Of a stretch of 64,000 bases of DNA, positions 24,781-63,223 are shown one piece after another. Numbering within the stretch: position 1 is the first letter of the stretch; each line of letters opens with the position of its first letter. A program made the translations under genes and the position numbers. The notes beneath the pieces are model-generated. The model was not told the origin of the DNA. It ran no database searches and saw only the letters and a list, made by a program, of their open reading frames with translations. Origin of the DNA: Oligoflexia bacterium (lineage in GTDB: Bacteria > Bdellovibrionota > UBA1018); the NCBI GenBank assembly GCA_963758495.1, contig CAVWVI010000003.1, positions 1,376,001-1,440,000 of the forward strand, in the 5' to 3' direction.

Positions 24781-26218
24781 CTAGCGTTCAAGATCATACG
24801 TTTTGCGAATCTTACTACCTTTTCCAATTTCAGGCAATCTGGCGTGTAGTTTGAAGACGGATTTCTCAACTGCCACCTTGCACGGATTATTTTGCTGAGA
24901 ATCAAAGTAATTTTTGAGTGCTACCTGCATCTGAAGTGAATAATCTAGAGCTACATCTCCCGCGCTAGGAGCCTGGTATTCACAATTTTTTGGGTCAATA
25001 CTACCAAATGGGGTAATCCCTTGTAAATTCCGAAACCAATTCATCTTTTGTTTATCTGAACACTGAATACTACCACCCGACCCTATCATTGGAGCAACAA
25101 TGGGATATTGTGCAGTTGAATGACAGCTTAAACAAGATGATGCTGGATTATCTACTGGGCCATTTAATCTTTTGCCCCAACCAAGATGCACTAACGCATA
25201 CGTTGGCGCCAGAGGACTAATATAGCTTTCAACAGGACGTGCTCCCGTAGTAAATTTTTCAAGCGTAAGTGTTGGATCGTTGCCCCACATCAAACCAACA
25301 AGTTTCATTTTATACCAGGGGATTATCTGACTGCTTTTTGAAATCATAAGCAAATGTTCCAAATACCCAACCTGTTTCTTCTGCTCTTTTGCTACGGATA
25401 GCAAAATCGATTTGTAGTACTCGAAGCTGCTGAATAGATTTCAGTCCATTGCTTCTATTAACTACAAAGCCGGATACCCTAGGAGAATCTGCTAAAATAT
25501 CAGGCCCATCAAACTCCTCTGATCTAGCGTCAGTGAGTAATAGTTTAACAACTGCAGAACCCTCAGGTAATTGACTCTTAGAAAGATCAGGTAAATCACC
25601 CCTCCAAATTTGCCCAATTGAATAGGCCGCTGTAGCATTATAATAGCCTACCGCGTAGTTATTTACAGAAGCACCCTTTCTAAGGCCTAACTCAGGCCCA
25701 ATAATGGGTCGTTCATCTGTCAGACCATGAACAAACTCTCGAGGGTGCTTTCCTGTTGTCATCCACGGAATATGGAACCATTTATGTTTAGAGTTAGCTT
25801 CCGCATACCAATCTGATTTAATCATGCCGTCGTATACGTACTTTAAAAATGAATCAGCATAGCGCTCCGCTTCATTATTTTTTTTGAAGTCAAACTCATC
25901 CCAAGGATACTTTTCATGAACTGCAGATGACGGATAATTCTGAGATAAAATAAACCGCGATCCAGAATAATTTTCTTGCACCTCAGATACAAAGTCAGGA
26001 TAGCGACCCGAACATTGAGCGACAAATTTGCCAGTCGAATTCGGCTTTCCATATGCATCCACTCGAAGGCAAATGGCGTCTTTTGAACATCGAAGGGAAG
26101 CAGGTTCAGGCAATGGAGATGACGTTCCAGTAGCGCTACAAGTTCGAGTAACGATGACATTTAAAATTAGACAGTTAAAAAGCAGAAGAAATAAAAAATA
26201 TTTATATATTATCTTCAC
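24781..26218 (-). pseudogene. secreted protein with CxxCH motif, split by a +1 frameshift at G4 run 25318-25321
   Basis: Removing one base joins ...GWVFGTFAYDFKKQSDNP to WYKMKLVGLMWGNDP...NPASSCLSCHSTAQ. Confidence 0.8.
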
Positions 26219-27415: not shown

Positions 27416-27644
27416 AACTTGAGGTCACAGTCCGTGATCTCAAGTTTTCTTTTGGTTTCAATAAGTTATTATACTTTCCCAATCTTGAGGTCACAGATTG
27501 TGACCTCAAGATTACCCTTAACTTTAATTACTTAGTACGCTTCTCAAACTTGAGATCACAATCTGTGATCTCAAGTTTGCCTTTAATTTTAATTAGTTAG
27601 TTCGTTTTTTCAAACTTGAGATCACAGATTGTGATCTCAAGTTT
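27416..27644. repeat. array of four ~31-bp palindromes (CTTGAGRTCACA-N3-YGTGAYCTCAAG) separated by 34-35-bp AT-rich spacers
   Basis: Units start at 27416, 27482, 27547 and 27613 (period 66/65/66). Central triplets are GTC, GAT, ATC, GAT. Confidence 0.95.
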
Positions 27645-27652
27645 TGCCAAAC

Positions 27653-28585
27653 CTAAAGTGCGAAGAGTAACTTCTGGATTATTTCCACAGTTTCGCAGAC
27701 TGAATTATCCCTCTCAATCGCAGTAGCAATCTTATTATAGGCGTGCATGACAGTGCTATGATCCTTCCCTCCAAAGGACTTTCCAATTTCCTTAAAGCCA
27801 ATACCAGTGTGTTTTCGAACAAGATAGATAGCAATCTGTCGCGGAAGTACAACCTCTCGCACGCGAGAGGGCGCTTTTAAGTCTTGGACTCGCAATCCAA
27901 AATATTTGGCTACAGTCTGATGAATTGAATTGATTTTAGAGTGAACTTTTTTCCCATGAATAAGGTCACCCATTTCTTTTGCTTTAAGTTTATCATTTGA
28001 ACCAAATGCATCTTGTTCTTGAGGATGACTAAACCTGTCATCAACATCAACAGTCGTTGGTTTGTGCAGAACCGATAATGCAGGTGCATTATTAGACGAT
28101 TTCTCCATTAAGAGTTGTTGGATTCCACTCAGTATCATTTTGAATTGACCATCCTGCTTTTGCTCAAGTTGCTCCAATCTGGTCTCAATTTCATCTAATT
28201 TCTCTCTTGATTCGATACCTATACCAGACAGTTGTCGAACTTCTGCAAAAGAGCGCATGATCGCAATATTCACCTGAACTGCTCGACCATTATCAAGAAC
28301 GCTCGAAAGCATTGCAACTCCATGCTCAGTGAATGCATAAGGAACAAAGCGGCGTCCTCCATGCTTTAAACTAGATGACACAATATGTATTTCTAGATCT
28401 TTGCTTTCCTCTAGGGTCAACTTAAACATGAAATCAGGAGGAAATCGGTCGCGGTTTCGTTGAACTGCTTGGTTCAGTACCCTAGTCTGAGTTTGGTAAA
28501 ACTCAGCTAGATCATTATCTAAAACCACTTTATGTCCTCGAACCGCATAAATTCGCCGTTTAATTTCACTAACGGATAACTCCAT
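27653..28585 (-). CDS. ORF6N-domain protein fused to DnaA domain IV (DnaA-box-binding HTH)
   Basis: N-term IYAVRGHKVVLDNDLAEFY...LNQAVQRNRDRFPPDFMFKLT...PYAFTEHGVAMLSSVL. C-term PRQIAIYLVRKHT...EIGKSFGGKDHSTVMHA. ATG at 28585 has a GAGGG RBS (ORF track starts at 28606). Confidence 0.9.
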   Translation of the reverse strand: MELSVSEIKRRIYAVRGHKVVLDNDLAEFYQTQTRVLNQAVQRNRDRFPPDFMFKLTLEESKDLEIHIVSSSLKHGGRRFVPYAFTEHGVAMLSSVLDNGRAVQVNIAIMRSFAEVRQLSGIGIESREKLDEIETRLEQLEQKQDGQFKMILSGIQQLLMEKSSNNAPALSVLHKPTTVDVDDRFSHPQEQDAFGSNDKLKAKEMGDLIHGKKVHSKINSIHQTVAKYFGLRVQDLKAPSRVREVVLPRQIAIYLVRKHTGIGFKEIGKSFGGKDHSTVMHAYNKIATAIERDNSVCETVEIIQKLLFAL

Positions 28586-28705
28586 TTTTAATCCCTCAAA
28601 GCGCAATGAAATGCCACATCGACTTGCAGTAGTCTAGTTATTTCAAACCACATTTATTTTGCCATCAAAATCACTTAAGAGAATACTTGTAGTTCCAGAT
28701 AGTCC

Positions 28706-28811
28706 ATTTTTGCGGTCACATTTTGTGACCACAAAAATACAATAATCCATTTATCAGCCTAAAATTAATGAAAATATCAACATTTTGTGGTCACAAAATG
28801 CGACCGCAAAA
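28706..28811. repeat. inverted pair of palindromes related to the downstream array
   Basis: ATTTTTGCGGTCACA-TTT-TGTGACCACAAAAAT (28706-28738) and TTTTGTGGTCACA-AAA-TGCGACCGCAAAA (28783-28811). The second is the reverse complement of the first with 1 mismatch. Confidence 0.9.
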
Positions 28812-30029: not shown

Positions 30030-30434
30030 TCAATCGACGAATAATCGAATCCCCAAAGTGTCGCAAAGAATTCTCATATCACCATCCCTCGACCATAATT
30101 CAGCATTCAGTTTTTTAGCAGTGAGTGCGATTAGAGCATCATTTTGAAGTGACGCAAGATTCGGCCCTTTATGTGTATTCCAAAAAAGCTTACGAATCAA
30201 ATCTGCTGCACTAGACCAATCTTCCTCATCAGGAGGAGCGGCCACAGGGGCTATACTTTTGTTTAAACTCAACTCCCAAGGTGAACCGGGACGCACTCCT
30301 CTACGAAGTTCATGCAGTGTAACAGGTGAAATAATGGGGGCTCGACCTGAAAGAAGAGCATTCCATGTCTTATCATCGATAGCGCCTCTTAAACGACGAA
30401 TGATGATATTCGTATCAATCAAGAGAAAGCTCAT
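30030..30434 (-). CDS. vapC: PIN-domain (VapC-like) toxin
   Basis: LIDTNII, ELRRG, NDALIA, SRD acidic tetrad. Confidence 0.88.
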   Translation of the reverse strand: MSFLLIDTNIIIRRLRGAIDDKTWNALLSGRAPIISPVTLHELRRGVRPGSPWELSLNKSIAPVAAPPDEEDWSSAADLIRKLFWNTHKGPNLASLQNDALIALTAKKLNAELWSRDGDMRILCDTLGIRLFVD

Positions 30435-30697
30435 CGAAGGCTTTCTAGGTCAAAATCATTCAAATCAAAGTTTTCTTGTATAGCAGTCATCCACTTATCA
30501 AATTCAGATCGCGCTAATTTCTCTCTCACAAGATCATTTATAATTTCAGACTCTGTCATGCTTGAAGGATAAAGCTCTTTAAGTTCCCGAACTTTCGATC
30601 GTGGAATACGCCCCGAAAATACTTTGGTCTTTGTTTCAGTGGCTGACCTTAATGATTTTCGACCCGCTGGCTTAGTTCGAGCCAATAGTTTTTTCAT
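30431..30697 (-). CDS. putative antitoxin
   Basis: 88 aa, ATGA overlap with the PIN gene, RHH-like strand-helix-helix pattern, acidic tail. Confidence 0.7.
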   Translation of the reverse strand: MKKLLARTKPAGRKSLRSATETKTKVFSGRIPRSKVRELKELYPSSMTESEIINDLVREKLARSEFDKWMTAIQENFDLNDFDLESLR

Positions 30698-49319: not shown

Positions 49320-49718
49320 TTAGGCATCACTTAATACTGACGCCTCTGGAGATATGGGTTGATGAGCCATTTTACTGCTCCCCTCAAAAATAACCCCTTC
49401 GTCTACACTTAAACTAGGAGTAAGAATGTCACCTCGAAAAACTGCCGGGCGGTGTATTTCAACGCGGTGCTTGGCTCGCAAGCTGCCGTTGACTTCACCA
49501 CTAATAATAATAACTCCTGCGTCAATTTGAGCATCCACTCGCGCCCCTTCTCCAATAATCAATGTATCAGGAGTATAAATTTCGCCTCTAAAAGTGCCGC
49601 CGATTCGAACCGTTCCATGGAAGCAAAGTTTTCCCTCAAACTCACAACCCTGATCAATCACAGCCGTTATAGCGCCATGCGTTAAAGGTACACTTAAGTC
49701 TTTTGATCTATTTATCAT
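49320..49718 (-). CDS. bactofilin (polymer-forming cytoskeletal protein)
   Basis: VIDQGCEFEGKL...VRIGG.F.GEI...IGEGA.V...G.V.G...FEG beta-helix. Confidence 0.93.
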   Translation of the reverse strand: MINRSKDLSVPLTHGAITAVIDQGCEFEGKLCFHGTVRIGGTFRGEIYTPDTLIIGEGARVDAQIDAGVIIISGEVNGSLRAKHRVEIHRPAVFRGDILTPSLSVDEGVIFEGSSKMAHQPISPEASVLSDA

Positions 49719-50674
49719 TTCTTAATTTGCATCCCTTCCAAAATCCGATCTAACTCTTGACGAGAAGCATAGTGCAGCACGATTTTACCACGCCGCTCTG
49801 AACCTTTAATTTCAACTTTAGTTGACCAAAATCTAGCCAACTCCTGAGAAAGGTTCGTGATCCTCTGAGCAAAAGCAGTCTTAGGATGAGGAGAGATCTC
49901 TTCTGTTCCTTTTTGATCTTTTGATGCTTTTTTCATAGCATCCACTAGAGCCTCAGTCTCTCTGACACTCAATTGCTCTTTAATCACCTGAGTACGCGCT
50001 CGAATACGCAGATCTGCTTCTTCTAATCCCAAAAGAGCTTTTCCATGACCAAATGTGAGAATCTGATTTTTTAGATCATCTATAATGACTTCTGGCAAAC
50101 GCAATAGACGAAGGTAATTAGCCACCGTTGCCCGTTCTTTGCCCACTCGATCTGCAACCTCTTCTTGGGTCAGAGAAAAGTCCTGAATGAGCTGAAAATA
50201 AGCTAATGCTTCATCTACACAATTAAGGTCTTGTCTTTGTATATTTTCAATAAGTGCAAGTTCAAGGGTTTCACGATCCGTAGAGCGACGAATAACGATG
50301 GGCACTTGTTTAAGTCCAGCCATTTTGGCGGCCCTTAAACGCCTTTCTCCTGCAATGAGTTCAAGACCGTCTTTTTCAGTTTTGCGTACAACGAGAGGTT
50401 GAATGATTCCACTGGTTCGGATGGATTGCGCAAGTTCTTTTAAATGAACTTCATTAAATTCTCTTCTGGGCTGAAAGTGATTTACTTGAATGTCGTCCAC
50501 TGATGCCATGCTGATTCCCATGTGTCGATCCCGATTGGAACTTTCAGATGGGGTAGACTTCAGTGCTGAGGAGGGAGTAGGACCAAATGCAGATCCCCCC
50601 GCCGCGAGGTGCGGTGATTGTGCATTAGGTAGCAATGAGGCTAAACCTTTACCAAGAACAGTTTTTTGTGCCAT
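49715..50674 (-). CDS. parB: chromosome partitioning protein ParB
   Basis: LGKGLASL, GIIQP, IAGERRLRA, ENIQRQDL, HTH. Confidence 0.97.
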   Translation of the reverse strand: MAQKTVLGKGLASLLPNAQSPHLAAGGSAFGPTPSSALKSTPSESSNRDRHMGISMASVDDIQVNHFQPRREFNEVHLKELAQSIRTSGIIQPLVVRKTEKDGLELIAGERRLRAAKMAGLKQVPIVIRRSTDRETLELALIENIQRQDLNCVDEALAYFQLIQDFSLTQEEVADRVGKERATVANYLRLLRLPEVIIDDLKNQILTFGHGKALLGLEEADLRIRARTQVIKEQLSVRETEALVDAMKKASKDQKGTEEISPHPKTAFAQRITNLSQELARFWSTKVEIKGSERRGKIVLHYASRQELDRILEGMQIKK

Positions 50675-50697
50675 GCGTTAACAATCTCCAAAATAGG

Positions 50698-51564
50698 TTA
50701 AGAACTACTGACTAGAGTATCATTATGATGAGTGGACCTTAAATCAGACTTACTTTGATTGTGAGTGAGCTGAGACTGCGCTAAACCCACCTGATTTTGA
50801 TTTTGTGCAAGTACTTCTTTTGCAAGATTCAAATAAGCTAAGCAGCCCTTTGAATCGATGTCATAAAGTACAATCGGCTTCCCAAAACTGGAGCACTCAC
50901 TCAGACGGACATTTCTAGGAACAACGGTGGTAAAAACCTTATCCTTAAAATGAGAGCGGACTTCTTTGACGACCTCATTTGCTAAGTTGTTACGACCATC
51001 GTACATCGTCAAAACGATCCCCTCTTGTGTGAGGTTCGCATTTAAATTTTGCTTGACCAACGATACGGTGTGCAAAAGTTGAGTCAGCCCTTCAAGAGCA
51101 AAATACTCACATTGCATAGGAACTAAGAATGAATCTGCTGCGGTCAGGGCGTTGATTGTAAGCAGACCCAAAGAAGGTGGGCAGTCAATCAGAATAAAAT
51201 CGAACTGATTTTTAATCTCAGCAATGGCCGCTTTCAACTTGCCTTCACGTGCAAATGCACCTACCAATTCGATTTCAGCACCCGCCAAGTCACCATTTGC
51301 AGGAGCGAGAAATAAACAGTCCATTTCCGTAGGCCGGATTACTTTGGAAAGCACAGTTTCAGCAATCAAAGCATGATAAATAGTGTCACCGTCTCCTATT
51401 GCTGCGCGATCAATCCCAAAAGCAGAACTTGCGTTGCCTTGAGGATCAAAGTCTACGACCAAAGTTCTTTTTTCAGCAATAGCCAAGGAAGCTGCTAGAT
51501 TGACAGTAGTAGTAGTCTTTCCCACACCTCCCTTTTGATTTGCGATCGCAATCACTTTGCCCAT
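50698..51564 (-). CDS. parA: chromosome partitioning ATPase ParA/Soj
   Basis: NQKGGVGKTT, DPQGNAS, DCPPSLG. Confidence 0.97.
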   Translation of the reverse strand: MGKVIAIANQKGGVGKTTTTVNLAASLAIAEKRTLVVDFDPQGNASSAFGIDRAAIGDGDTIYHALIAETVLSKVIRPTEMDCLFLAPANGDLAGAEIELVGAFAREGKLKAAIAEIKNQFDFILIDCPPSLGLLTINALTAADSFLVPMQCEYFALEGLTQLLHTVSLVKQNLNANLTQEGIVLTMYDGRNNLANEVVKEVRSHFKDKVFTTVVPRNVRLSECSSFGKPIVLYDIDSKGCLAYLNLAKEVLAQNQNQVGLAQSQLTHNQSKSDLRSTHHNDTLVSSS

Positions 51565-51771
51565 CGATACTCCTTAAAAATGCTAATCTAGAGGCGCTTA
51601 TTAACGCCCCTAGATAAGTATGGTTGTGGTTGGTGTGGATAATCAAACTTTTTGGACCGCCAGAGCGGTTACCTCCACTCAAGGCTAGCCGCGAATAATC
51701 GTGTTAGCAAGTGGTTTCTTCAAGAATTTTCAGGGTTAATCCGAAACTCAAACCTTTAAATAAAACTAGAC

Positions 51772-51787
51772 TGTTCCACGTGGAACA
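51772..51787. promoter_or_regulatory. parS site (perfect)
   Basis: TGTTCCACGTGGAACA matches the TGTTNCACGTGNAACA consensus and lies next to parAB. Confidence 0.92.
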
Positions 51788-51801
51788 GGAGCGCATACTC
51801 A

Positions 51802-52446
51802 TTAGGTGTTTTTTAAAATCCGTCGTAACTGAACAATGCAGCGTTTTTTCTGCTCAGGCCCTACCGTATAAAAATGTTCCGCCTCAAGAATCAGTTCTTT
51901 TCGAAATCGGGTCTGCTGAAAAGCTTTCCACTCTTCCTCCCAGCTCGGACCTTTAAATAAAACTAGACTGTTCCACGTAGAACATTTTTGAATCCAACTG
52001 TAGATTCGCTCCACCGGACCTACTGCTCTCGCCATGATGGATTGAACAGAATGCATTTTTAAGTAGGCTTCTGCTCGAATTGGCGCAACCTTGACGTGAG
52101 ATTTCAACCCCAAAAGATCCAATGCTCGTTCAAGATACTCAGCTTTTCTCTTCTCTGATTCTGCCAGTACCCACTCATCTCCTCGAACCAAGGCTGCAAG
52201 TATACCTGGAATCCCGACTCCAGAGCCTAAATCGAGCGCAGGGTATTTTACTTGGTTTATTTTTAAAAGCTCTAAAACATCCACAACATTTCCATAGTAG
52301 AAATCTAAGGGAGAAGTGAGTCGAGTTAGATTTTGAAGTTCATTCTCTCTTAGGATGATTTCATAGAATGAAAGGATTCGTCCAATGACTTCATCTGTAA
52401 GTCCGTAAGCATCCCTTAATAAGTATTGTTTTAATTCTTCAGACAT
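51802..52446 (-). CDS. rsmG: 16S rRNA m7G527 methyltransferase
   Basis: NLTR, LDLGSGVGIPG, RAE, ARAV, KG; between mnmG and parA. Confidence 0.95.
   Translation of the reverse strand: MSEELKQYLLRDAYGLTDEVIGRILSFYEIILRENELQNLTRLTSPLDFYYGNVVDVLELLKINQVKYPALDLGSGVGIPGILAALVRGDEWVLAESEKRKAEYLERALDLLGLKSHVKVAPIRAEAYLKMHSVQSIMARAVGPVERIYSWIQKCSTWNSLVLFKGPSWEEEWKAFQQTRFRKELILEAEHFYTVGPEQKKRCIVQLRRILKNT
51969..51984. promoter_or_regulatory. parS site (1 mismatch) inside rsmG
   Basis: TGTTCCACGTAGAACA. Confidence 0.8.
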
Positions 52447-61508: not shown

Positions 61509-63223
61509 CTTAGCGACAATGTAAGAAAGCAACGTCCCCTCAGAGCTGCGGTACTAAGACCGTAAGCTTTGTGGGCTAATCGCTCAATGGGCCTCAATCT
61601 GGGGAGTGGTATAATAGAAACTGCTTCGTAAAGTAGTTTCAACCAGTCTAACCAGCGTGCCAAGGAGGGAACGTTGTTATGAACTATTATATTGGAATGG
61701 ATGCACATGCAGCAACAACAACCGTCGCAGTCGTGGATGAAAAAGGGAAAAATATTGATCGCCAAAATTTTGCCACTACAGAGGCAAATTTACTTGGATT
61801 CATAAGAAAGATTAAGGGGAAGAAGTTCCTGACATTTGAAGAAATGCATCTGGCTCAGTGGTTGTATATCATACTAAAAAAAGAGGTAGATCACCTGGTA
61901 GTTTGTAATCCTGTTTATGTAGCTGAAAAACAGGGAGCAAAAACAGACTTTAGAGATGCTCTACATTTAGCTCAGGAACTTAGAACGGGGCATTTGGTTG
62001 CCGTTTATCATGATGAAAGTCACTGGATCCAGCTGAGGGTTCTAGTGTACGGCTATTTGGCCTTAGTAGAAGAAATCATTCGAACTAAGAATAGACTGAA
62101 GGCAGTATTTAGATCCGAGGCGATCGATACATCACAAACAGATTTTTATGAAAAAACGAGAGACCGATTAAAAGAACTGTCTCATGAGAGTGCACGGTTT
62201 GTTGCTGAGAATCTTTATTGGCAGATTGATGGTTTAGAGAAAAGAAAACGAGAATACCGTGAGGTTCTTCAGCGTAATTCTAAAAAATATAAACCTATTA
62301 AAAATCTCATGACTATTCCCGGGATTAGTACGGTTCGAGCAAGTATTATCACAGCTGTAGTTTGCACACCGCACCGTTTTAAGAATAAACACCAATTCTG
62401 GGCTTATTGTATGTTGGCAAGACATATCCAAATGAGTGATGGAAAAATCTATGGAAATAAAAAAATTCATGGAAGGGCAGATCTAAAAGAAGTTTTTTTA
62501 GGAGCAGCCGAAAGTGCAATGAGAAGTGAAGGGTTCTTACGAAATTATTACGAAGAACAAAGAAAAGAGATTCCTTATCAGGACGCTAAAAGGGCTCTAG
62601 CTAGAAAAATTGCGGCACTCAGTATAGCCCTTCTTAAGAATAATGGAACTTATCAAGATGACTATGAAAAGCAACAAGAGGAGAAAGCTCAATTTCGTAA
62701 AATGCTAAATAAAGACGTTTGAAAACATTTCAAGTAATCTGATTACGCATGGAAAATAGGCGTATCCTGAAGACCGAATTTGTTCCTCCTTGTAGGACGT
62801 TCAAACTGAAGGTCAGTGGAAGATCTCTGGAAGGGATACTGATTGCTTGGGATGGGGGATGAGGCCCATTAGGAAGCGTGGTCGTCTAACGATAAGACAG
62901 GCCCAAAGGTAGCGACTGGCACGCCCCCGTATTATATCCAAAATTGTCATGGCACGGGCTGTATTCAAAAATACGTATTGTTCGGTCGACGATTTTTTCA
63001 CAGGCGAATGAAGGCGTGTTTAAACGGACTTTCTATTTAGACAATTGAAAAGCAATCATAAAAAAGTGGTCCCTCTATTGAAGATCGTATTTGCGTCGAT
63101 TTCACTTACGAATCAGATTCTGAGCTAGTGCGGAGTCCAGGGACGCCAGCGTTGATCATTAAAATATCAACAAAGGTGATTGGAGATGTGTATCAAAAAT
63201 CGCTTGCTTTCTTACAGGCACTT
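61509..63223 (+). mobile_element. IS110-family (IS1111-like) insertion sequence
   Basis: Transposase plus perfect 13-bp subterminal IR TGTAAGAAAGCAA (61520-61532) / TTGCTTTCTTACA (63204-63216). CTT core at 61509-61511 and 63221-63223. About 500 bp non-coding right end. Confidence 0.8.
61679..62722 (+). CDS. IS110 family DEDD transposase/recombinase
   Basis: YIGMDAH, TFEE, NP, KTDFRDA, TIPGI, RF...AY...SDG. AAGGAGG RBS. Confidence 0.93.
   Translation: MNYYIGMDAHAATTTVAVVDEKGKNIDRQNFATTEANLLGFIRKIKGKKFLTFEEMHLAQWLYIILKKEVDHLVVCNPVYVAEKQGAKTDFRDALHLAQELRTGHLVAVYHDESHWIQLRVLVYGYLALVEEIIRTKNRLKAVFRSEAIDTSQTDFYEKTRDRLKELSHESARFVAENLYWQIDGLEKRKREYREVLQRNSKKYKPIKNLMTIPGISTVRASIITAVVCTPHRFKNKHQFWAYCMLARHIQMSDGKIYGNKKIHGRADLKEVFLGAAESAMRSEGFLRNYYEEQRKEIPYQDAKRALARKIAALSIALLKNNGTYQDDYEKQQEEKAQFRKMLNKDV

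Follow-up and report, generated by a model that had tools for sequence, protein, structure and literature searches.

What is the function of four regularly spaced palindromes that lie directly behind a gene for an ORF6N–DnaA fusion protein? The locus is part of a window of 64,000 nucleotides, the whole stretch of Oligoflexia bacterium DNA analysed here (contig CAVWVI010000003.1). The fusion gene (27653..28585, minus strand) encodes 310 aa with the order ORF6N domain, long helix, disordered linker and DnaA domain IV (PF10543 + PF08299); an alternative TTG start upstream, at 28606, would give 317 aa. The palindromes are 31 bp each (units 1–4 at 27416..27446, 27482..27512, 27547..27577 and 27613..27643) and alternate with spacers of 35, 34 and 35 bp (27447..27481; 27513..27546, between units 2 and 3; 27578..27612), none of these elements having an assigned strand. 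A first-pass annotation of the same DNA had described this arrangement, and coordinates and arm-pair counts bear it out, as they do the distance to the stop codon, which unit 4 adjoins: 8 bp lie between position 27644 and the TAG at 27653-27655. Two further copies, likewise without strand, lie upstream of the gene: copy 5 (28710..28734) is a match to a degenerate palindrome pattern, and copy 6 (28785..28809) joins one Q-type half to one E-type half, types that are defined below. The degenerate pattern has 6 matches in the window, whereas 100 shuffled versions gave 0.00 on average and 0 at most.

Of 14 possible arm pairs, 12, 14, 14 and 14 are complementary in units 1 to 4. The inner sequence is GGTCACA-GAT-TGTGACC in unit 2, GATCACA-ATC-TGTGATC in unit 3 and GATCACA-GAT-TGTGATC in unit 4, while unit 1 is a hybrid of the half-sites GGTCACA and GATCACG with one further mismatch. 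The central triplets are GTC, GAT, ATC and GAT, including the alternation in units 2–4 that had been seen before, and units 3 and 4 together constitute an inverted repeat of 34 nt without mismatch. Changes in the arms are compensatory (GAGG..CCTC and GAGA..TCTC), again as described earlier. All three pairs of spacers are homologous (shuffle p 0.0025, 0.001 and 0 of 2000): spacer 3 is a near copy of spacer 2, a likeness that was already recognized, and spacer 1 is homologous to both. Since the spacers are mutually homologous, the array is the product of tandem duplications of a ~66-bp unit.

Several other loci in the window were recorded. Two overlapping minus-strand ORFs (207 and 302 aa, 24781-26218) have no Pfam family and may be one frameshifted gene. 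A PIN-domain gene and a small gene upstream of it (30030-30697), 1.5 kb from the fusion, resemble a VapBC toxin–antitoxin pair, and an IS110-family transposase is located at 61679-62722. A sigma-70 scan returned 4 sites, with 4.7 expected, so that no promoter could be placed.

In its dimensions (repeat 31 bp, spacers 34–35 bp, period 66 bp) the array resembles CRISPR arrays, and it had been called CRISPR-like; it differs from them in its homologous spacers, its symmetrically varying repeats and its four units only. A search of the spacers against phage sequences gave 41 records at E up to 10, the best listed having E 0.02, and none is significant. We dropped the likeness and rejected a CRISPR array because the spacers duplicate each other (p at most 0.0025) and have no significant phage match. 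The accompanying statement that cas genes are absent holds locally and fails genome-wide, a cas1 gene being found at C3:548925, ~855 kb off. Next to it are ~29 copies of a repeat that is unrelated to the palindrome, and the palindrome does not occur at that locus. A region of 114-bp tandem repeats adjoins the host CRISPR array (L005:5095-8010).

A REP-like repeat, scattered over the genome and unrelated to the gene, would also consist of palindromic, intergenic units with similar spacers, and this explanation is almost certainly wrong. The host genome (3.66 Mb, 92% complete) holds 15 strong palindromes with at least 9 of 11 arm pairs, all situated between −47 and +11 kb of oriC in three clusters: 6 at the array (−46 kb), 8 before a paralogous fusion gene (+10 kb) and 1 at 288 bp from the first DnaA box. 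Fourteen of the 15 lie beside two ORF6N genes, which supports the linkage that the first-pass annotation had proposed. In 74 other genomes of the family the pattern is present 0–5 times per genome. With so few copies, placed near oriC in the host, the REP reading is refuted.

Read as codons, the units spell LRSQ(I/S)V(T/I)S, an internal motif that follows the ORF6N core. From relatives, further genomes and viral contigs we collected 316 ORF6N genes, of which 220 were retained after removing duplicates, one truncated gene and near-identical genes; the 213 genes not flagged as fusions are called plain here and include three fusion-type genes missed by the flag. In 200 of these 213 genes the DNA encoding the motif pairs at 9 or more of 11 arm positions, in agreement with the earlier view that the symmetry is maintained. 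Coding copies have 10.5 arm pairs on average, compared to 4.8 after synonymous recoding and to at most 7 at a control position. We defined the cognate palindrome of ORF6N genes as a 25-bp core, TTGAG-N4-CA-N3-TG-N4-CTCAA, whose inner bases track two residues, a and c, of a helix in the protein. The array units fall within this definition, with units 3 and 4 obeying both rules on both halves, and at the level of sequence they are shown to belong to the palindrome family built into ORF6N genes.

The mismatched pairs of the coding copies (A-C 36 and G-T 25 on the sense strand) have no RNA wobble bias, and their centres are balanced between reverse complements (AAT 80 and ATT 69, ATC 9 and GAT 7, AAA 10 and TTT 7). 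Both properties are as expected of a site in double-stranded DNA whose centre is not read. They bear on the proposal that the array is co-transcribed with the gene and processed to guide RNAs bounded by hairpins, or that it is a mere terminator between convergent genes, which we regard as very improbable. The start of the array 8 bp past the stop codon speaks for such a transcript, as does its strong folding (z −12), though this is expected of any palindrome, and units 1 and 3 score as terminator-like on the plus strand. A side role in termination could remain. Against it, mismatches are without G-U bias, the spacers duplicate one another and lack both a significant phage match and a second site anywhere in the host genome, and Rfam returned 23 hairpin matches, all sub-threshold. 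Palindromes also occur inside genes and upstream of them, the latter being true for 52 of the 78 copies outside coding sequence. The processed non-coding RNA suggested in the first-pass annotation is therefore not upheld.

The same annotation had offered phased binding sites and inversion substrates as further options. Binding is the best of the three; phasing fails, and we rejected it, since the period of 66/65/66 bp corresponds to 6.2–6.3 helical turns and sister arrays are spaced by 59–147 bp. As to inversion, the 3-bp centre was probably inverted during evolution, and nothing indicates a programmed switch; the opposite orientation of the triplets in units 3 and 4 (GAT/ATC) is most easily explained by an earlier inversion or by inverted copying.

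Which protein would bind such sites is indicated by a correlation within the ORF6N genes themselves. Across 200 genes and both halves, the half-site bases track residues a and c of the helix T-a-b-L-N-c. Lysine at position a goes with G in 218 of 220 half-sites, arginine with A in 78 of 110 (G being tolerated in 32 of 110), and phenylalanine or methionine with A in 34 of 34. At position c, Q is paired with CA (188/196), E with CG (86/86), K with TC (44/48) and R with GC, AC or CC (54/60). The rule for position a is visible even at a synonymous base, where AGG:AGA is 86:2 with K and 2:30 without K. On a tree built without helix and motif, at least 73 changes are counted for residue c, 78 for the site class and 80 for the two combined; 21 of 26 sister pairs obey the c rule and 18 of 22 the a rule. 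An independent-pair test restricted to well supported branches comprised 4–6 pairs only, too few to reach significance.

The code was further tested on non-coding copies and on a gene with a decayed copy of its own. Copies outside the coding sequence agree with the c residue of the neighbouring protein in 88 of 156 half-sites (permuted mean 53, maximum 79); for the a rule, agreement in 106 of 156 half-sites stays below the permuted maximum of 109. In the fusion protein the predicted recognition helix is T-R-V-L-N-Q-A-V-Q-R (28457..28486, minus strand), with R at position a and Q at position c. Its T-R-V-L-N-Q predicts GATCACA-N3-TGTGATC, which is exactly the sequence of units 3 and 4, the predicted cognate sites. 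Eleven of the 12 half-sites at the array locus score as compatible with c = Q. In unit 2 and in the upstream copies, G stands in place of the A that R prefers. For ORF6N, a widespread domain without established function, the two-residue site rule makes a direct assay possible and provides a small DNA-binding scaffold that can be programmed.

We compared the ORF6N head with proteins of known structure. The domain (28298..28555, minus strand) matches PF10543 with 104 bits (curated cut-off 27.8) and the PADLOC profile PDC-S05 with E 7.6e-47, the latter being the only PADLOC match of the fusion protein. A PDB sequence search with the ORF6N profile found no match, and Foldseek found none for the model (pLDDT 85) against the PDB at E 0.001. 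Fold neighbours from VIA-align are Dachshund (Z 6.4), pSK1 Par (Z 5.0), Mbp1 (4.2) and RacA (4.0), all middling (<8). The alignment with pSK1 Par bound to centromere DNA (8csh) spans 53 residues at rmsd 2.1; the RacA structure is 5i41. Helix 2 of RacA and Par is described as inserting in the major groove (PMC11500499), with K15 and R19 on helix 14-23 as the base readers of RacA (PMC4914108). Given a gap-free range before the helix, residues a (34) and c (38) would fall on K15 and R19 in our model; this register was taken from the end-points of the aligned ranges (model 18–100, chain −1 to 54). Like RacA and pSK1 Par, the protein likely acts as a dimer that places helix 2 in the major groove to read both half-sites.

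In the fusion gene itself, the coding copy (28372..28396, minus strand) is decayed, with 4 of 11 arm pairs and LEIHIVSS in place of LRSQIVIS. The motif is kept in 37 of 100 fusions and in 200 of 210 plain genes; its loss in 63/100 as opposed to 10/210 implies that the fold does not need it. Outside copies, 78 in total, occur at 56 of the 220 genes, 14 of them coming from the host genome. Six lie at the array gene, while 210 of 220 genes have none or one. Fusions with a lost coding site and both flanks assembled have 3–8 outside sites, and the one other such fusion with a decayed site has a tandem array of at least 3 sites with duplicated spacers; where the coding site is intact, at four loci, 0–1 outside sites are present, although these are small numbers. 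The outside sites may substitute for the decayed coding copy. IHF, parS and DnaA-box motifs were searched by their consensus sequences. An exact IHF-like motif adjoins 7 of 79 outside palindromes, compared to 0.5 in shuffles, and an exact IHF-consensus match at 28775-28787 overlaps upstream copy 6. Spacer 1 contains an IHF-like 13-mer (27456-27468, one mismatch) that is present in oriC too, a weak lead; since no single spacer of the array is significant (p 0.07–0.6), the IHF motif is a lead only.

The in-frame reading of the units as the protein motif raises the idea that they are silent cassettes or inversion substrates which rewrite the motif of the gene, an idea also nourished by the nearly equal frequency of reverse-complement centres in coding copies, indicating that centres flip in evolution. 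We consider it highly unlikely. The gene's own copy matches the units at 10–14 of 25 bases and their flanks at 2–10 of 20, the match of motif and helix is held across the family, where cassette swapping would break it, the motif is located in a low-confidence loop of the model and lost in most fusions, and the neighbours scanned encode no recombinase or reverse transcriptase. Operator or anchor sites are very likely what the array provides.

The second DNA-binding part of the fusion protein is domain IV (27728..27934, minus strand; PF08299). The full-length model places it (pLDDT 88) behind the ORF6N head, a 65-residue helix (100–164) and a disordered linker. With numbering from 1J1V, the box-reading positions R399/P423/D433/H434/T435/H439, described for DnaA in PMC7561715, are R/K/D/H/S/H in the fusion: the equivalents of R399, D433, H434 and H439 are kept, T435 is replaced by S and P423 by K, and this K is also found in the host DnaA. 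Domain IV is 59% identical to that of the host DnaA over 90 aa. The fusion scores 107 bits versus 344 for TIGR00362, below the DnaA equivalog cut-offs, and domain IV alone is present.

Among the sequences that we examined, 100 distinct fusion proteins were identified by a profile search, and an Atlas cluster of 68 fusions is commonest in Bdellovibrionota. We sampled 401 genomes of the phylum, scoring up to 6 candidates in each, and found full-length fusions in the window's family only. A metagenome scan with the fusion alignment, using patterns from domain IV, yielded 80 DnaA-type loci with no ORF6N gene among them, 23 of which served as an outgroup. A scan of viral contigs with the fusion found no relative, no phage or plasmid record in tblastn covered 80% of the fusion protein, and a viral library search gave single-domain matches only. 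Matches in BFVD indicate that many uncultured phages encode small proteins consisting of little beyond DnaA domain IV. Other domain arrangements were noted: P0187 is a 673-aa protein with five domain IV matches, P0171 and P0201 have two tandem ORF6N domains each, and several loci comprise runs of ORF6N genes with differing helices.

Where the fusion genes lie suggests a target for domain IV. The 17 perfect DnaA boxes of the host oriC (C3:1449926-1450372) lie 7 kb from dnaA, close to the minimum of the GC skew and before a gene that is, by eye, presumably dnaN. No perfect DnaA box was found at the array itself. The order contains 10 fusion genes in 5 of 116 genomes. Of the 9 that can be placed, 7 lie within ~60 kb of oriC, directly or by synteny, and 2 elsewhere; two of the 7 are <1 kb from the box cluster, and all 7 occupy ~4 distinct sites within one family. 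Among the 63 plain ORF6N loci of the order, 27 can be placed, and the single match near oriC maps onto the fusion gene itself; the flanks of this control are shorter than those of the fusions. A palindrome or fusion is present at 3 of 17 oriC loci of the family, several of the other 14 ending early at contig ends, and a same-genus genome with both oriC flanks assembled has neither. The fusion system is accessory, not core.

In addition to its fusion genes the host carries parA, parB and parS, with parB, parA and a parS-like palindrome (51772) at window positions 49715-51990 and a degenerate second copy near 51968 in a duplicated stretch. The paralogous ORF6N–domain IV fusion (C3:1460482-1462100) has its 8 upstream palindromes in duplicated blocks, two of whose spacers hold exact IHF-consensus matches. 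Four of these sites fit the paralog's own K..E helix and four fit R-class helices. Half of the paralog's sites, as well as the oriC site, fit helix classes absent from the 92%-complete host genome. This speaks against the docking reading given below and suggests that part of the palindromes are remnants or belong to sister proteins that the host lacks. The oriC site is a lone perfect palindrome (C3:1449614-1449638, 288 bp from oriC) without an ORF6N gene; the same flank bears a fusion gene in two relatives, and the site is likely a relic. The host dnaA (C3:1441420-1442848) reads as frameshifted near 1441930, probably by an assembly indel, as other genes are split likewise. Stand-alone domain IV fragments were seen at C3:1535849-1535989 and L074:1929-2141; one has a stop, and the other is a short ORF just after a palindrome beside oriC.

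The reading that we favour, at slightly better than even confidence, is that the palindromes are sites for the ORF6N head of the neighbouring fusion and that domain IV binds DnaA boxes and links the locus to oriC. Counting against it are the middling fold scores, the a rule's result on non-coding copies, the G in unit 2 and the upstream copies, the sites of helix classes that the host does not encode, the two fusions placed away from the origin, the few distinct positions of the other seven and the shorter control flanks, the family oriC loci with neither palindrome nor fusion, the host's parA, parB and parS, and the lack of a perfect DnaA box at the array. The gene is flanked by 2 sites upstream and 4 downstream, an arrangement that suggests autorepression: binding would repress the fusion gene, perhaps by looping, and hold the protein at its own locus. 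The target of domain IV would be TTATCCACA. The retention of its box-reading residues and the origin-proximal position suggest binding to oriC boxes in cis, and the chances are about even that the docked protein reaches the 17 boxes, competes with DnaA and damps or times initiation; as it lacks an AAA+ domain, it would compete with DnaA and could not open the origin. More tentatively, accessory two-headed proteins of this kind might tether their own gene to oriC, the tether controlling initiation in cis and keeping the element there. In such a tether the tandem arrays could possibly be the anchor, and the palindrome code would normally reside within the gene's own coding sequence. A tether would be a kind of origin regulator without described precedent, coupled to a natural readable protein–DNA code, and the fusion with its sites near oriC points to accessory action on replication initiation in an uncultured lineage, likely of the Bdellovibrionota.

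A simpler account, which we regard as rather unlikely, takes the palindromes as plain autoregulatory operators of a gene that captured domain IV through a local duplication of the dnaA 3′ end, so that its proximity to oriC is historical and no bridge exists. When compared with 23 other DnaA proteins as well, the domain IV of the fusions joins the DnaA of its own family (branch support 96). Isolated domain IV fragments occur close to the origin of the host (G000) and of G075, and 2 of the 9 placeable fusions map elsewhere, as this account would have it. It is opposed by the conservation of the box-reading residues over 100 divergent fusions (R399 in 100, H434 in 98, D433 in 90) and by the finding that fusions cluster on the ORF6N tree (9 changes, 72.5 when shuffled) yet occupy ~4 origin-proximal sites. 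Such clustering, combined with ~4 sites, is fitted better by repeated settling near oriC than by one local accident.

We also weighed an abortive-infection or addiction factor that halts replication by covering oriC, with the array as a sink or as a self-immunity element like aba for BstA, retaining the protein until phage infection releases it; this appears distinctly improbable. This alternative draws on the match of ORF6N to the PADLOC candidate PDC-S05, one member of which lowered phage plating up to 1000-fold according to a cold-seep preprint, and on BstA: this protein contains a KilA-N-like domain and prevents DNA replication, and its gene is overlapped by cognate cis elements. The 3–8 outside sites of fusions that lack a coding site and have both flanks assembled would suit it as well. 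However, the domain that the preprint gives for the PDC-S05 member assayed is RhuM and not ORF6N, aba is no palindrome and has direct repeats at its ends (PMC8585504), a diffusible inhibitor would not need a gene near oriC, and no full-length fusion was found in the phages, plasmids and viral contigs searched. We retain docking at the palindromes with a link to oriC as the preferred reading.

The literature search, in the portions of text that it covered, found no description of the coding palindrome, the helix code or the fusion, and the supplements of defence-screen preprints may list ORF6N tests. With other ORF6N proteins (PF10543, PDC-S05, KilA-N-like fold) the fusion shares the domain and the palindrome family, and it differs from them in the fused domain IV, the decayed coding palindrome, the 6 outside sites and the position near the origin. 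BstA/aba is similar in that a KilA-N-like protein has a cognate DNA element at its own gene and acts on replication, and in that variant proteins pair with variant elements, as described in PMC8585504. It differs in that aba, by the same account, is a 63-bp, prophage-borne element with terminal direct repeats, whereas the element here is an inverted repeat of 25–31 bp, and the fusion gene is chromosomal with no integrase among the neighbours scanned. With DnaA (PF08299; 1J1V) the fusion has in common domain IV and its box-reading residues, and it lacks the AAA+ domain and domain I. A further, possible likeness is to RacA/ram (B. subtilis), pSK1 Par, RocS and RicO, MerR-type winged-helix anchors of origins and centromeres with a DNA-reading helix 2 followed by a coiled coil and a disordered part; RacA binds clustered palindromes near the origin (PMC4914108, PMC11500499), and RicO is described in a preprint. 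The second anchor of these proteins is DivIVA or the membrane, and their sites are spread over the origin region. In the fusion a C-terminal membrane or DivIVA anchor is absent and the C-terminus is DnaA domain IV, a predicted reader of DnaA boxes, its sites flank or lie inside its own gene, it has no PDB sequence match, and it is accessory (5 of 116 genomes of the order). We therefore liken the fusion to these origin anchors and, as its second anchor differs from theirs, do not count it as a member of their group.
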